Source of the DNA: a virus
Lineage: Duplodnaviria; Heunggongvirae; Uroviricota; Caudoviricetes
IMG/VR virus record: IMGVR_UViG_3300012983_001310
Strand: one strand, 5' to 3'
Length of the DNA: 5,853 nucleotides
In this document: positions 1 to 5,853 of the stretch, in pieces
How the letters are laid out: every line of letters begins with the position of its first letter
Numbering within the stretch: position 1 is the stretch's first letter
Made by a program: the position numbers and the translations under genes
The notes under the pieces: model-generated
The model's database searches: none
What the model was told of the DNA's origin: nothing
What the model saw: only the letters and a program-made list of their open reading frames with translations

Positions 1-1786
1 AGCTAATCGCCCCGATGGCCGTCATAACAGCACTGCCAACCGTCGTGAAGATTGCCCCCATTGCGCCTGCTGCCGCGATGATGGCATTGATGCCAGTGAT
101 AACCGGCCAGGCTACAAGACCAATGGCACCGATGATGCCAGTAAGCGCCAGCGCGCCACCGGCAATGATGCCAATGGTTGACGCCAGTGATTTGTTTTTC
201 TGTATCCAGCCGTCGAGTTTTAACACATACTTTGTGGCCGTCTGTGTGAGCTTACGCAGTGCGCCTTCCTGCTGGTCAAACAGGTCTGTCCCCACCGCCT
301 CATAAGCGGACTGAAACTCCTTAAAGTCACCGCCGAGGTTGTCCTGCATGATATTTACCAGCTCGGCAGTCTTCCCGTCTGAGGCTTTAAACGCAGCGGT
401 CAGTTTGTCCAGCTTTCCGGTTGAGGCGGCAGTCATCAGCACGGCGGCGGCTGAGCTGGCCTCCTCCCCGAAAATAGTTTTCATGTATTCAGCCTGCTGG
501 GCAGTACCGAGCCGGTTTTTCTCAAAACTGGCCTGCATTTCTTTCAGAATGGTAAATACTGGTCGGGTGTTTCCCTTGCTGTCTGAGGTTTTCACTCCAA
601 GCTCTTTGAGTGCATCCCATGCTTTTCCCGTCGGTGCCTGCAGGCGGCTTAACACGGCACGGCTTCCCGTCCCCGCCATTGAGCCTGTGATTTTTGCATC
701 ATGCAGCGCCCCGACCATTGCGGCGGTTTCTTCAATGCTGACACCGGCATTTTTTGCCACAGGTGCGGCATAGGTCAGCGCATCGCTCATGCCGTCAAAA
801 TCGGCGGCGGTTTTGTTCATCGTCATGGAGAGAACATCCCCGATATGAGCGACCTTATCGTTTGAAAGCTGAAAGGCGGATTTCATCCCCATCAGCAGGG
901 CGGCGTTTTCTTCCATCGTGCGGCGGTTCGCCAGCGCCATATTCAGCGTGACCGGCGTTGCCGCCTGAATGGCATCAACATCCCCACCCGCTTTCGCGAT
1001 GATTATCTGTGCACCGGCCGCATCATCCGCCGAGGCTGCGGTATTGTCACCGAGCTGGCGCGCCTGTTTGCGTAGTGCGGTCATTTCGGCGGAGTCTTTT
1101 GCCACTCCGAGCACGGCCTGCAATTCTGAGTTTTTCTGCGCAAACTCATAACCGGGCATCAGCAACTTAACTCCGGCCATCGTTCCCGCAGCAGCAATCC
1201 CCACACCGGCAGCGCCCACTGAGGCCATATTTCCGGCCAGTTCCTTTCCGGCCTGATAACGCTGTTTTACTGCGTTAAGTTTTGCCTGTTGTGCACTGAC
1301 ACGCGCCAGCGCGTCACGCTGACGGTTAAGCTGTGCGGTGGTTTCACTGATACGGTTTTTCAGTCCCTGCTCATCATGTGCAAGATTGCGGGTATTAATT
1401 CCCACAGCGGCCAGTTCCCGCTGCTGGCGTTTAATGGAATCTGTCAGGCGGTTATATTTCGCCTGTAAGTCCTCCGCCGCACGCTTTGCGGATTCCAGCA
1501 CTTTCGCCTGAGCACGGGTCGGACGTTCAGTGTTTTTAAACTGTGTGGCAAGGGCTTCGGCTTCCTGCCGTGCCTTTTCAAGTGCATGACCAGTCACGGC
1601 AAGCTGTGCGCTGGTCTTGCGAAATCCCTCAATACGGGATGCGTGACCGTTCAGCTCGCGCAGTGATTTTTGTGTTTCCCGGATATCCCCCGACAGCGAC
1701 TTACTCGCTGTGCGGATGGATTTAAACGGGCGGGATGCCTGGTCAACAGCCCTGAGCAATACCTGTAATTTTACATTGTTACTCAT
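1..1786 (-). CDS. T: Tail tape measure protein, N-terminal ~595 codons; C-terminus lies beyond the left edge of the window
   Basis: Minus-strand frame open from ATG at 1786..1784 to the window edge. My translation begins MSNNVKLQVLLRAVDQASRPFKSIRTASKSLSGD, which I recognise as the P2 gpT N-terminus, followed by a coiled-coil-like region and Ala/Gly-rich hydrophobic stretches typical of tape measure proteins. Position is immediately downstream of E/E', as in the P2 FI-FII-E-T operon. Not in the ORF track because it is truncated by the window. Confidence 0.9.
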   Translation of the reverse strand, partial: MSNNVKLQVLLRAVDQASRPFKSIRTASKSLSGDIRETQKSLRELNGHASRIEGFRKTSAQLAVTGHALEKARQEAEALATQFKNTERPTRAQAKVLESAKRAAEDLQAKYNRLTDSIKRQQRELAAVGINTRNLAHDEQGLKNRISETTAQLNRQRDALARVSAQQAKLNAVKQRYQAGKELAGNMASVGAAGVGIAAAGTMAGVKLLMPGYEFAQKNSELQAVLGVAKDSAEMTALRKQARQLGDNTAASADDAAGAQIIIAKAGGDVDAIQAATPVTLNMALANRRTMEENAALLMGMKSAFQLSNDKVAHIGDVLSMTMNKTAADFDGMSDALTYAAPVAKNAGVSIEETAAMVGALHDAKITGSMAGTGSRAVLSRLQAPTGKAWDALKELGVKTSDSKGNTRPVFTILKEMQASFEKNRLGTAQQAEYMKTIFGEEASSAAAVLMTAASTGKLDKLTAAFKASDGKTAELVNIMQDNLGGDFKEFQSAYEAVGTDLFDQQEGALRKLTQTATKYVLKLDGWIQKNKSLASTIGIIAGGALALTGIIGAIGLVAWPVITGINAIIAAAGAMGAIFTTVGSAVMTAIGAIS

Positions 1787-2206
1787 TCGTGTTTCCGCTT
1801 CGCCGGAGCGCCTTTTCGCGCCATGTGATGAGTTCGGTCAGGCTCATGGGATACAGTTCTGATGGCGGCCAGTGAAATATCACTGCCACATCCGCCATCA
1901 GGTCATCGACCGAGAGATTTTTCGGGAACGTTACTGCACCGAGTTCGGCGACAAAAAACCGACCACCTTACCGGCCAGCGCCACAAGGTCAGGCAGTTCC
2001 AGCGCGGCGACTTCCTGCTCGGTCAGCATCGGTGCCGTCATGCGCGGCAGCACCTTAATCAGTGCATCGACTTCGGAGTTCGCGACCGCAGCCAGACTGA
2101 CACCGCGCAGCGTCCCGGCATTAGGTTTCATCAGCGTGACCTGTTCGATAACCTGCTCACCACGCTTGACCGGATTGTCCAGGGTAATCACATTTTCTTT
2201 GTTCAT
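1779..2206 (-). CDS. E+E': Tail assembly chaperone E+E' (142 aa), made by -1 programmed ribosomal frameshift at 1952-1958
   Basis: After a -1 slip on T_TTT_TTG, I translated the new frame by hand: it stays open for 57 codons (VAELGAVTFPKNLSVDDLMADVAVIFHWPPSELYPMSLTELITWREKALRRSGNTNE) and ends at TAA 1781..1779. 85 + 57 = 142 aa, the size known for P2 E+E'. The E' stop overlaps the T start (ATGAGTAA). Confidence 0.75.
1931..2206 (-). CDS. E: Tail assembly chaperone gpE (91 aa), zero-frame product
   Basis: 91-aa ORF (MNKENVITLDNPVKRGEQVIEQVTLMKPNAGTLRG...GFLSPNSVQ) with ATG at 2206 and TAA at 1931-1933. Size and position between the tube gene and the tape measure gene match P2 gpE. Contains the slippery heptamer near its 3' end. 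Confidence 0.9.
   Translation of the reverse strand: MNKENVITLDNPVKRGEQVIEQVTLMKPNAGTLRGVSLAAVANSEVDALIKVLPRMTAPMLTEQEVAALELPDLVALAGKVVGFLSPNSVQ
1952..1958 (-). other. Slippery heptamer T_TTT_TTG for the -1 frameshift (plus strand reads caaaaaa)
   Basis: Minus strand reads GGT TTT TTG TCG in the E frame, so the X_XXY_YYZ heptamer is T_TTT_TTG, placed 6 codons before the E stop. The chaperone/tape-measure frameshift is a conserved feature of tailed phages and is described for the P2 E/E' pair. Confidence 0.75.
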
Positions 2207-2262
2207 GGTTTTCTCACTTCTGAATCGGGGTTAACCGGTCAGCCAGGCTGACCGGATGAAAA

Positions 2263-2781
2263 TCACAGGCCGATATTGCGGCGGTGTTGCTCCAGCCGGT
2301 CGACGCCGTTCACCTTCTCAATCATGTTGATGGTGTCGATTTCGACCAGCTCCTTACCGTCCATCGTCAGCCGGAAATAGGTGCAGACCACGGAGATTTT
2401 CGACTCGGTGTCTTCTCCCTGTTTGCCCTCGCCGGTGTCGATTTCTTTCTGACGTCCACGCATGACCACCTCGACGGCCACCGTTTCGCCGGTATCGTCG
2501 CGCTGGTAAGAGCCTGCAAAACGAATCGGTACGGAATCCACACCGGTTGCGGCGTAAAGCTCCCAGATAACCGAATCCGGGAAGCCACCGAGCGACCACT
2601 CCATTGACAGCGCATCGTCATCAAGGCCGAGGTCTACCGGTGCGCTGCCGTTCATCCCCGCACCGCGATAGTTTTCGAGCTTACGGGTCAGTTTTGGTAG
2701 CGTGACGGACTTCGCGACGCCCTGATAGCTGTAGCCGTTCAGAAAGACGTTCATTAACTTGAGTTTGCGCGGCATTGCCAT
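2263..2781 (-). CDS. FII: Major tail tube protein gpFII (172 aa)
   Basis: 172-aa ORF (MAMPRKLKLMNVFLNGYSYQGVAKSVTLPKLTRKLENYRGAG...) recognised as P2 gpFII. ATG at 2781 is preceded by GGAG with an 8-nt spacer (minus strand GGAGCCTGACCG-ATG). Lies directly downstream of the sheath gene with a 12-nt gap. Confidence 0.93.
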   Translation of the reverse strand: MAMPRKLKLMNVFLNGYSYQGVAKSVTLPKLTRKLENYRGAGMNGSAPVDLGLDDDALSMEWSLGGFPDSVIWELYAATGVDSVPIRFAGSYQRDDTGETVAVEVVMRGRQKEIDTGEGKQGEDTESKISVVCTYFRLTMDGKELVEIDTINMIEKVNGVDRLEQHRRNIGL

Positions 2782-2793
2782 CGGTCAGGCTCC

Positions 2794-3984
2794 TTAATTG
2801 CTGTTAACCGAGGTGACCAGATTTGCCAGGTATTTATCGGTAATACGCTGGCGCAGGGTCAGGTTTTCAAGAGGAGGCACCGGTGTATAGTCGTAGTCGA
2901 TATACAGTTTTCCGGCCTTGAGGGTTTCCGCATCGTTGGATTCTTCGCTGAACCAGCAGGTCGCATCCACGATATAGCCGTTTGTTTTCAGCTCACGGAA
3001 TTTGGCATTGATGCCGTCAACGATGTCGCGAATCAGCGTTGCGGTGATGGGCTTGTCCACCGCCCACATGTGCGCCTCAGCCATCGTGTCGGCCATCACC
3101 TGCGCGGTGCGGGTGTAGTTTTCAAAGAGGAACAGCGGGTCATCAGAGCAGGTACGGTTACCCCAGAATCGGAAACCGTCGCGGCGAATCAGCGTAGTGA
3201 CGCCTGACTTGTTAAGCAGGTCAGCATCGGTGCCGGACTCCTGCAAATCCCAGAATACAGATGCGCTGATGCCGGTAACACCGTTTACCCCGACGTTGGA
3301 CAGCGTTTTATGCCAGCCCTGCTCCTGGTCGATTTTAGCGCGCAGACCCAGCGCACGGGCGGTGGCATACGCGGTGGCGGTGGTGCTGCTGACCGTATCC
3401 CATGCGAGGAAATCCGGCCAGATGACCATCAGCTCACGCTGGCTGAAATTCTGACGGTAGGCTTTCACCTCGGAAATGGTTTTACAGCCCCATGCGCTGA
3501 TATACCCGAAAGCGCGCAGCTTCTGACAGACTGATGCCAGTGCAACAGCCACCTCTTTGGTGTCCAGTCCCGGCACGCCGAGAATACGCGGTTTAACACC
3601 GGTTACCGACTCCGCCGCCAGCAGGGCTTTCAGTCCGGTGTACTGACCGTTTTCGTCGGTGGTGCCGATGATATTGGAAACGGTCTGCGCGAGTTTCGTT
3701 TCCTCGTCGTCGCCGGTGCCGTCTTCCACACGCACGACAACGGTGACCGGTTTTGACTGGTCGGCGATAGCCTGCAACGATGCCGCCAGCGTGCCTTTTT
3801 TACCGGCCTTTGCAATTGCGCTCTGCACATTGGTAATCAGCACAGGTTTATTGAGGGGGAAGGTTTCCGCATCCGCATCGCTGGCCGTGCAGACCATGCC
3901 GACAATGGCAGTGGATACGGTGGAAATGACGCGGGTGCCGTCGTTAATCTCCAGCACCTGCACGCCGTGATGATAGTCACTCAT
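2794..3984 (-). CDS. FI: Contractile tail sheath protein gpFI (396 aa)
   Basis: 396-aa ORF (MSDYHHGVQVLEINDGTRVISTVSTAIVGMVCTASDADAETFPLNKPVLITNVQ...) recognised as P2 gpFI; the length matches. ATG at 3984 is preceded by GGAG (minus strand CCACGGAGTTAAACGG-ATG). GC-rich coding sequence. Confidence 0.95.
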   Translation of the reverse strand: MSDYHHGVQVLEINDGTRVISTVSTAIVGMVCTASDADAETFPLNKPVLITNVQSAIAKAGKKGTLAASLQAIADQSKPVTVVVRVEDGTGDDEETKLAQTVSNIIGTTDENGQYTGLKALLAAESVTGVKPRILGVPGLDTKEVAVALASVCQKLRAFGYISAWGCKTISEVKAYRQNFSQRELMVIWPDFLAWDTVSSTTATAYATARALGLRAKIDQEQGWHKTLSNVGVNGVTGISASVFWDLQESGTDADLLNKSGVTTLIRRDGFRFWGNRTCSDDPLFLFENYTRTAQVMADTMAEAHMWAVDKPITATLIRDIVDGINAKFRELKTNGYIVDATCWFSEESNDAETLKAGKLYIDYDYTPVPPLENLTLRQRITDKYLANLVTSVNSN

Positions 3985-4078
3985 CCGTTTAACTCCGTGG
4001 TTAATGGGTGCAACTATTTTCTGTTGTGCAGAGCATGAGACGCTATTTGACCTGGCTGGTCAGTGGATGAAACAACAG

Positions 4079-4107
4079 ATAAAGAAAAGGCGGGCAATTC
4101 GCCCGCC
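4079..4107 (-). terminator. Rho-independent terminator downstream of the cargo ORF, oriented for minus-strand transcripts
   Basis: Minus strand reads GGCGGGC-GAATT-GCCCGCC (perfect 7-bp GC stem, 5-nt loop) followed directly by TTTTCTTTAT. On the plus strand the same hairpin is followed by a poor T-tract, so it is mainly unidirectional. It lies ~175 nt past the cargo stop and ~95 nt before the FI start. Confidence 0.6.
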
Positions 4108-4282
4108 TGTCCTGATTTGTACTCACTCATTTTCCAACTGACTATTTACATAGTCCAAACGCTATCAAATCTGACTGTCTGCTTTGAGCGAGGTGCTGAC
4201 ATCCGCATGAATGTATGGAGCTGCCGCACACTCTAAAAATGATAGAACGTCTATATATTAATTATCCCTAAGTCCAGTTTCA

Positions 4283-4810
4283 TTAATCAATTTTATTACT
4301 TTTACCTGCAACCTTTTTATTATAGTGATAATAAGAAATAGCACTAGCAAAATAGGATTTTGTCATCGATACGAAAAAACCCAACAAATCTGCCATGTTA
4401 TCAATATCAATATTTGGTTTGGTTTTACTGGCTTTAGTAATCTTCATGTAGAAGTCCACAAACTTACTTTTTTCTTTATCCGTAATCTGATAATTCAATT
4501 GATGACTGATTTTATTTCTTATGCTGTTAAAGTCTTTTATTCTTAAATATATTTCATCATAAGGGGGTTTTGCAGGCTCATGTTGTATTAAAGCTATTTT
4601 TTGTGAAAATGTGAGTTTTGCATCACCCCAAGCTAACGAAGGATATCTTAATCCAAGATAATCAGTAATATACTTTTCAAGGCTCAAGTGCGCAGTAAGA
4701 AAGGCACCTATGAAGGCAACGTCAACCCCATCAACACGTTCCCATATGCTTTCATTTTCATCAGTCATACCTGTATACACAGCAGTTGATGCAAGATCTT
4801 TCCAGTCCAT
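4283..4810 (-). CDS. Hypothetical 175-aa cargo protein in an AT-rich island; candidate lysogenic-conversion or anti-phage defence gene; HEPN-like R-x4-H motif is speculative
   Basis: 528-nt ORF in DNA of roughly 25-28% G+C (my hand counts on 60-nt samples), where stop codons are frequent and long ORFs are unlikely by chance. ATG at 4810 is the first possible start (in-frame TAA two codons upstream) and is preceded by AAGGA with a 6-nt spacer. Same strand as the tail genes, flanked by its own terminator. Predicted product is largely helical by eye; R98-N-K-I-S-H103 is encoded at 4502..4519. Confidence 0.8.
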   Translation of the reverse strand: MDWKDLASTAVYTGMTDENESIWERVDGVDVAFIGAFLTAHLSLEKYITDYLGLRYPSLAWGDAKLTFSQKIALIQHEPAKPPYDEIYLRIKDFNSIRNKISHQLNYQITDKEKSKFVDFYMKITKASKTKPNIDIDNMADLLGFFVSMTKSYFASAISYYHYNKKVAGKSNKID

Positions 4811-4845
4811 GCTTTATCCTTTTAAAGGTGAATTTAACGAGTTTA

Positions 4846-4874
4846 ACTTTATCTCAACTCAATACTTATCTCAA
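4846..4874 (-). promoter_or_regulatory. Candidate sigma70 promoter for the cargo ORF: -35 TTGAGA (4874..4869), 17-nt spacer, -10 TAAAGT (4851..4846)
   Basis: Read on the minus strand: TTGAGA is a 5/6 match to TTGACA and TAAAGT a 4/6 match to TATAAT, with 17-nt spacing. Predicted start near 4839 gives a ~30-nt leader to the ATG at 4810. Two copies of TTGAGATAA overlap the -35 and the -10. AT-rich DNA gives many chance matches, so confidence is low. Confidence 0.3.
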
Positions 4875-5199
4875 AATTTATGAGTAGAAATAACATCCAC
4901 AAAAAACTATTAAAGCCCTTTTACCTCTTATTATTGATGAAAATGTACATTTTTATAATGAATGTCGAAGAACCTCCTCAGTGGAACTATCAACTACACA
5001 TTGCAAGACTAGAGTATGTGCAAACCTTTTGACAAGGTTCTGAAATATTCATGGTGGCCTTATTATATCAATTTATCTTCACTTTATACATTAACATAGC
5101 ATGATGTTGATAATGTCCGCTCCTAGCACAGAGCGGACTGTCAGATTAGGCCTTACTCTGTACTATAGCTATGTTAACTAACACAAGAGATCATATCAC

Positions 5200-5727
5200 T
5201 TATTGCGGCATTTCCGGCCATTCAGGATTTGCAGGATCCACACGGCTGACCAGAACACAGTAGCGTTCCCATGCTTCCAGTCGGCTACGCTCCTCATCTG
5301 TTGCCATGTTCAGTCTGACAGCGCGCTCCAGTGGCTGAATAACGCTTTCCGCTTCGGAAAGTAACGCGGCCTTTTGTGATTCTGCCTGTTGTTGCTGTTC
5401 GTCTGCCGTATAAATCCGCTTAATCACGGCACCATCCTTAAACATCCATTTACCTGAGTCATCAGCACGTCGGTTGGCGGTAATATCAGGAACCTCGACA
5501 ACGTTAAAACCTTCAGGGTTAAGCGTTGAAGCATCCCTGGTGATGCCGACAATTATATTATTCTCATCGTAAACAATCTTTATCGTGTCCTCCTGAAAAT
5601 TACTTACTTCCTCATACCAGTTTTTTCCCTCTTCGGACCATAACCAGATAACATCAAAATTTTTTGTCAGTTGATATTGGGCAACAGTTTTTGGATTACC
5701 CGCAGTAATATTTTTTAAATGCTGCAT
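5200..5727 (-). CDS. G: Tail fibre assembly protein gpG (175 aa)
   Basis: From ATG 5727 the product is [40 protein letters not shown]...[30 protein letters not shown], recognised as P2 gpG / Mu U family with the characteristic C-terminal W-x-RY-x-V-L-x-RVD...EWP motif; 175 aa matches P2 gpG. The ORF-track start at 5814 is a TTG with no Shine-Dalgarno. The frame is open upstream to the window edge, so the true start is not fully certain. Confidence 0.85.
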
Positions 5728-5853
5728 AAATTGTAAGCGTACAGCCTGAACCGTCTGGTCAGAATCTGACGAATTAGACAAAGTGGTGTCCACCAAATAA
5801 GTAGTGGGAACCAAAGTGTCAGATATGCAGAAAAATGTGACTCCCGGCAGGCG
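5728..5853 (-). other. H-G junction: either the 3' end of the upstream tail-fibre gene (H-like) or an H-G spacer; frame not resolvable in this window
   Basis: Synteny in P2 (V W J I H G) places tail-fibre gene H immediately upstream of G. Of the three minus frames, the G frame is open to the window edge, a second frame is open to a TAA at 5717..5715 overlapping the G start, and the third stops at TGA 5821..5819. Only 126 nt are available, so the H stop cannot be fixed. Confidence 0.3.

Follow-up and report, generated by a model that had tools for sequence, protein, structure and literature searches.

Gene E in this stretch of tailed-phage DNA ends a few codons beyond a run of six T's, and the -1 frame stays open from there to the next gene. 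Does this arrangement program a -1 ribosomal frameshift that makes a second, longer protein from the same mRNA, and does the slippery sequence act by itself or together with neighboring elements? We addressed both questions by computational analysis of the whole 5,853-nt stretch (hereafter the window; IMG/VR record IMGVR_UViG_3300012983_001310) and of related loci. The best explanation, to which we assign a probability of about 95%, is a programmed -1 ribosomal frameshift in the tail assembly chaperone gene of the P2 family.

The E/E' locus and the phage that carries it

The minus strand is the coding strand for every gene in the window. Gene E (2206..1931, 91 aa) lies directly downstream of FII (2781..2263), which encodes the tail tube protein (Pfam Phage_tube, E = 3.8e-60; P2 gpFII), and is followed by T, the tail tape-measure gene (Pfam PhageMin_Tail, E = 1e-45; P2 gpT), whose 5' part occupies 1..1786 and is cut by the window edge; the tail sheath gene FI is also nearby (Pfam). 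The position between FII and T, with the E' frame described below ending at 1779 and the T start codon beginning at 1786, marks the chaperone slot. E residues 7–85 match Phage_TAC_7 (Pfam; E = 2.6e-12, 47 bits versus a cutoff of 25), and E also matches phrog_103, 'tail protein' (PHROG; E = 3.8e-43). In the fusion E+E', residues 104–139 match Phage_P2_GpE (PF06528; E = 1.2e-21, 76 bits versus a cutoff of 23), a match for which the -1 extension alone suffices, and phrog_1756 spans residues 82–142. A sequence search of solved structures found no relative of E+E'.

The slippery heptamer is present where a sequence-only reading had placed it, near the end of E. The reverse complement of 1952–1958 is TTTTTTG, and the E codons divide it as GGT|TTT|TTG (G83 F84 L85), so that T_TTT_TTG (1958..1952, minus strand) matches the X_XXY_YYZ register exactly. 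The E stop (TAA, 1933..1931) comes after six more codons (S P N S V Q), as had been counted, and the -1 frame is indeed open for 57 codons, from the re-read G at 1952 (VAELGAV...SGNTNE) to a TAA at 1781..1779. This extension, E' (1779..1952 with its TAA, minus strand), has the sequence VAELGAVTFPKNLSVDDLMADVAVIFHWPPSELYPMSLTELITWREKALRRSGNTNE; appended to E residues 1–85, it yields a 142-aa E+E'. It had been said to end exactly at the T start, which holds roughly, but E' runs past the T start codon (ATG, 1786..1784) with an overlap of 8 nt, ATGAGTAA. The statement that E' begins without a start codon fared similarly: the -1 frame does open just 5 codons upstream of the shift, but an ATG inside E' (1898..1896, minus strand) had been ignored. 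It opens a 39-aa ORF in the E' frame, which the NCBI pipeline calls and which would fall below the cut of an ORF list limited to 40 aa or more, as our own list was.

The heptamer lies within the short E/E' overlap, the -1 frame opening just 5 codons before the shift codon and E ending 6 codons after it. The late opening of the -1 frame leaves very little room for a productive shift. The TAA that closes the -1 frame upstream (1967–1969, minus strand) is made of the T of GGT and the AA of AAG, overlaps the SD-like motif considered below and confines a productive -1 shift to 12 codons; it is not kept in relatives that have GGC, GGG or CAG at this place.

TTTTTTG alone is unremarkable, with five occurrences in the window versus 2.2 expected. 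Its combination with a long -1 frame is remarkable. Among 13 in-frame X_XXY_YYZ heptamers in the window genes, only the E site leads into a long -1 frame (57 codons versus 33 for the runner-up), and a -1 frame open for at least 57 codons is found at just 4.7% of codon positions (median, 9).

Around the site, 601 bases match a Peduovirus P2 record with 100% identity. When the E–E' segment was aligned with P2 E+E' (AF063097), a check that the sequence-only reading had proposed, 9 of 428 nt differed (97.9% identity), and the heptamer and its flanks were unchanged. In AF063097, E occupies 19430..19705, the E/E+E' features span 19430..19857, and a 'site of -1 translational frameshift' is annotated at 19685, directly after the heptamer (19678..19684). 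The same record holds a two-piece CDS for E+E' described as 'shares amino terminus with gpE; -1 frameshift; essential tail protein'; the phage L-413C record has the same two-piece CDS and frameshift annotation, and the curated W-phi gpE+E' has the junction GFL|VAELGAV. The assignment to the P2-type E/E+E' chaperone frameshift, also made earlier, thus agrees with the Pfam families, the position between FII and T, and the annotated P2 site. Over a longer range, window positions 4192..1 align to P2 17440..21635 at 96.6% identity, and the best matches to the whole window are E. coli prophages, with up to 99.9% identity. As judged from these whole-window matches, the source is a P2-like phage or prophage and not P2 itself, and its frameshift site is the already characterised one of P2 E/E+E', known since 2002.

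Complementation by Christie et al. in 2002 is said to show that E' is essential, and their fusion proteins reportedly show ~10% shifting. In P2 a -1 shift at TTTTTTG gives a 91-aa E and a 142-aa E+E', the TTTTTTG site is kept in Burkholderia P2-like phages, and a downstream hairpin was not found (PMC3091744). The frameshift efficiency in P2 and its relatives is 2–3 fold above the ~1:30 of lambda (PMC5009743, citing Christie et al. 2002). The occurrence of the shift, the essential role of E+E' and the efficiency of ~2–3 times that of lambda are second-hand here, taken from the P2 literature and record.

Two regions beyond the tail chaperone genes are of separate interest. P2 similarity ends at 4192, next to an AT-rich island (4200–5100; 31–36% GC versus 51–59% in the tail genes) flanked by the genes for tail-fibre assembly and for the sheath. 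An ORF in this island (4810..4283, minus strand, 175 aa) occupies the P2 slot of the non-essential T5-exclusion gene fun(Z). It has no match in Pfam, PADLOC or NCBIfam and matches only phrog_5483, of unknown function; the parts of the P2 hotspot literature that are accessible do not mention the locus. This ORF is a candidate lysogenic-conversion or anti-phage cargo gene. The tail-fibre assembly ORF (5200–5814, minus strand) is mechanically called as 204 aa from a TTG at 5814; its RefSeq homologue has 175 aa (528 nt), which would place the start near 5727. Similarity to related phages stops at ~5732, the onset of the variable tail-fibre gene.

Conservation of the heptamer and its surroundings

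We compared 80 loci from species-representative genomes of Enterobacterales (79 distinct sequences; E 66–100% identical). They were retrieved with two peptide patterns, one of which demanded ...[KQ]V[VI]GF, so amino-acid conservation at the site is partly ascertained while codon choice is not. All 80 loci have a heptamer in the same register, TTTTTTG in 77 and TTTTTTA in three. Among the 79 distinct loci, its codons are GGT (78/79), TTT (79/79) and TTG or TTA (79/79), versus backgrounds elsewhere in E of 43% GGT among Gly, 64% TTT among Phe and 7% TTG/TTA among Leu codons. The -1 frame is open in every one of the 80 loci, so that the refuting condition named in the sequence-only reading, a closed -1 frame in homologous phages, does not hold. 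It is 57 codons long in 62 of the 79 distinct sequences, 58 in 13, 54 in two and 62 in one, and is fused into T in the remaining one; thus, 78 extensions fall within 54–62 codons. The 8-nt overlap with the T start recurs in 55 of the 79.

We then turned to 12 distant Peduoviridae (E 32–73% identical), 11 of which have an open -1 frame at this position. TTTTTTG is found in nine of the 12: phage 186, Burkholderia PhiBP82.2 and AP3, Ralstonia RSY1, Pseudomonas phiCTX, Klebsiella KP12, Salmonella SEN5, Aeromonas LPM4 and Acidovorax Alfacinha1. This count includes the twelfth phage, RSY1, in which the annotated ORF start lies in the E' frame, and in which the open frame and TTTTTTG are seen only in an out-of-register scan. 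The other three phages have different tandem-slip heptamers, G_GGA_AAG in a Mannheimia phage, A_AAT_TTT in Citrobacter phage Shae_phiSM and either G_GGT_TTT or T_TTT_TTC in Aeromonas phage 3, and each of these feeds a homologous E' with an ...ADIAxIFHW... core.

Several records in these sets are unusual in their own right. Ralstonia phage RSY1 (ORF30, locus 449–919) is annotated with one 156-aa ORF that follows the E' frame throughout, and its E/E' pair appears to be mis-called. In Erwinia tracheiphila ICMP 5845, the -1 frame continues for 506 codons past the T start, E' being joined in frame to the tape-measure gene via a change near its end (...TWRERRCSEAETTMSNNLRLEV...); this locus is probably a decaying prophage. 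Four loci (L005, L012, L015 and L055), from assemblies labelled Chryseobacterium sp. 18061, Vagococcus sp. WN89Y and Sporobacter termitidis MAG, carry a P2-like E with 72–92% identity to its enterobacterial counterpart. Since the labelled hosts are implausible, contamination or mis-binning with Enterobacterales DNA is likely.

A downstream stimulatory hairpin or pseudoknot was rejected by fold, consensus-fold and shuffle tests alike. The 90 nt after the heptamer do not fold significantly as a single sequence (z = -1.59). The consensus fold of 24 diverse loci has a sole, weak helix ~46 nt downstream with a covariation term of -0.09. In a proximal 5-bp hairpin, 77.5% of cells are paired, no better than in shuffles (336/500); just its CCG/CGG core is kept, and this core is coding-constrained in both frames.

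Upstream of the heptamer, we observed constraint of a different kind. The codons of K80 and V81 are AAG and GTG, and fixation at the silent positions reaches 0.98 and 0.92 versus backgrounds of 0.47 and 0.43. In excess fixation they rank second and third of 54 testable columns, between the heptamer codons for L85 and G83; the silent site of F84 (TTT) is completely fixed as well. Together these codons contain AGGTG (1968..1964, minus strand), which ends 6 nt before the P-site codon TTT and is followed by (A/G)T(C/T); an extended SD-like form, AAGGTGGTC, is found at 1969->1961 (minus strand). The 3' end of 16S rRNA reads ...GAUCACCU..., and AGGTG is complementary to this end as commonly given. 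An SD-like motif of a validated class and distance is present in 73 of the 79 enterobacterial loci versus a base rate of 0.14 at other positions of the same loci. It recurs in nine of the 12 distant phages (11 if a 5-nt gap is allowed) versus a base rate of 0.13; in RSY1, GAGGTGA precedes TTTTTTG. Motif types and spacings vary between genera, with AGGTG here and GAGG, GGAG, GGNGG or AGGTG elsewhere, and the binomial probability of 1.5e-6 is nominal, as it ignores shared ancestry. These patterns argue for selection on the SD-like sequence over and above what the protein code demands, in lineages that are not independent of one another.

What might such a motif do? U_UU.U_UU.G is not among the efficient motifs listed for E. 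coli reporters (PMC4066793). The heptamer alone may therefore not account for the reported efficiency, and a stimulator would help. SDs located 8–11 nt upstream stimulate -1 shifting, and SDs beside the E site can lower it (PMC6321510). As the 6-nt spacing is close to the lower limit of stimulatory distances, AGGTG could either raise or lower shifting, although it may be the stimulator. We tentatively propose, at slightly less than even odds, that the P2-family shift relies on a conserved SD-like element 5–14 nt upstream that would pair with 16S rRNA and set the E:E+E' ratio. We did not find such an element described in the accessible literature, which does not include the original P2 paper, and it may already be known.

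Other possible routes to an E' product

Our data have to be weighed against three other explanations. In the first, RNA polymerase adds a U within the T6 run, which would place E and E' in one mRNA frame and give the junction GFF|VAELG. The site is a homopolymer of six T's, and at the E locus itself the computed evidence fits slippage at the RNA level and at the ribosome alike. Efficient transcriptional slippage in E. coli, however, generally requires runs of ~8–9 or longer. Relatives that lack the T6 run carry other tandem-slip heptamers, two of them not homopolymeric (G_GGA_AAG and A_AAT_TTT), each with a homologous E'. Moreover, the exact codon register in 80/80 loci matters for the re-pairing of tRNAs and is irrelevant to a polymerase, and the conserved SD-like motif upstream would make no sense unless the event takes place on the ribosome. 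Proteins with the GFF junction do exist in databases, though their simplest origin is a T7 run in the DNA or in the assembly. Taken together, these observations make polymerase slippage very unlikely.

The fused E–E' entries in the databases form a small group of their own. Four (P0013, P0019, P0025 and P0028) have 142 aa and the junction GFF|VAELG; three have the junction GF|VAELG and 141 aa (P0011 and P0090, the latter representing 22 member sequences) or 140 aa (P0012). Such junctions are expected from T7 or T4 runs in the DNA, the run lengths here being deduced from the proteins. The entries could be homopolymer sequencing or assembly errors or genuine run-length variants; if the variants are real, the E:E+E' ratio would be lost in them.

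The second explanation needs no frameshift: E' would be a small gene in its own right, translated from the ATG at 1898..1896 into a 39-aa 'GpE family phage tail protein'. RefSeq E. coli genomes carry exactly this 120-nt CDS, the Phage_P2_GpE model begins at the internal Met (E+E' residues 104–139), and the ATG is kept in 78 of 79 enterobacterial loci. The region ahead of the ATG speaks against it. The stretch from the E stop to the internal ATG, 11 codons long, varies by 0.15/0.12/0.36 at -1-frame positions 1/2/3, a coding signature, and in 60 of the 79 loci no ATG, GTG or TTG precedes the internal ATG in the -1 frame. Because codon-position variation is coding-like upstream of the sole internal ATG, E' appears to be translated without a start codon of its own. 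In addition, phrog_1756 (E+E' residues 82–142) reaches upstream of the internal Met. The Met itself is not always kept: it is Ile (ATA) in one enterobacterial locus (L041) and is replaced (Val, Ile) or absent in KP12, Alfacinha1, Shae_phiSM and the Mannheimia phage. As judged by eye, the 20 nt that precede the ATG (ATCTCTCGGTCGATGACCTG) contain no SD-like sequence. A separate gene would also leave the silent-site fixation of the heptamer unexplained, and it is the frameshift product that the curated P2, L-413C and W-phi records use. We conclude that an independent E' gene is extremely improbable and that the internal ATG is probably not a real start, as far as the comparison of loci can tell.

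In E. coli genomes annotated by PGAP/RefSeq, E' nevertheless stands as a free 39-aa gene (e.g. at 3279–3398 of locus L002) and not as a ribosomal-slippage join. These free-standing calls suggest that the P2-family chaperone pair is being mis-annotated systematically.

The third explanation, a functionless coincidence of heptamer and open -1 frame, could appeal to the frequency of TTTTTTG in the window but is refuted by the comparative data (80 loci and 12 distant phages) and contradicted by conservation, register, silent-site and family data as well as by the published P2 genetics, leaving it practically no probability.

Proposed mechanism and comparison with known systems

The programmed -1 ribosomal frameshift would proceed as follows. 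The majority of ribosomes would read E to its stop and release the 91-aa gpE. A minority would slip back by one base while the P site holds tRNA-Phe on UUU and the A site tRNA-Leu on UUG, both tRNAs presumably re-pairing with UUU UUU in the -1 frame in a tandem slip. Translation would resume at GUC to yield the 142-aa gpE+E', with the junction ...GFL|VAELGAV... and an end 8 nt inside gene T. The two proteins would share the N-terminal chaperone domain, and a single mRNA would supply both in a fixed ratio. If lambda G/GT is a guide, this common domain may coat the tape-measure protein and the E' domain may recruit the tube protein. Since no downstream structure was found, the conserved AGGTG may tune the shift by pairing with the 3' end of 16S rRNA.

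In setting the ratio of two tape-measure-associated tail assembly chaperones, this frameshift is a textbook case of tailed-phage recoding, and the site itself matters only for correct annotation, as pipelines still split E+E' into E and a spurious 39-aa gene, a practice to which this window adds a further example. The sole element that might be new is the conserved SD-like motif upstream. If it acts as proposed, it would explain how the P2 family reaches 2–3 times the efficiency of lambda despite a heptamer that is not among the efficient ones and without downstream structure. A functional motif would thus fill a small gap in the understanding of P2-family efficiency without RNA structure and would be a useful feature for frameshift predictors in contractile-tail phages.

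The closest known system, P2 gpE/gpE+E' of the FETUD tail operon, is the same gene: it too encodes proteins of 91 and 142 aa, overlaps T by 8 nt and lies between FII and T. The window differs from P2 in diverging beyond 4192 at the cargo locus, where P2 carries fun(Z).

E. coli dnaX and the insertion sequences IS911 and IS3 resemble the E/E' site in having an SD-like motif upstream of a -1 heptamer. They differ in having a downstream hairpin or pseudoknot, which the E/E' site lacks; in addition, the E heptamer is U-rich rather than A_AAA_AAG, and the SD spacing is short, at 6 nt.

In lambda, gpG and gpGT are made at a ratio of ~30:1; G binds the tape measure both by itself and as part of GT, the T portion of GT binds the major tail protein, and neither chaperone ends up in the virion (PMC5009743). 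In both systems, the major tail or tube gene and the tape-measure gene flank two overlapping ORFs, and a slip into the -1 frame late in the first of these makes the long form at a fixed low ratio (PMC5009743). P2, however, is contractile-tailed and shifts 2–3 times more efficiently, and family-level searches linked neither E nor E+E' to lambda G/GT, with Pfam placing E in Phage_TAC_7. The heptamer of E is TTTTTTG and not the G_GGA_AAG of lambda, yet one member of the P2 family, the Mannheimia phage, uses the lambda heptamer as well.
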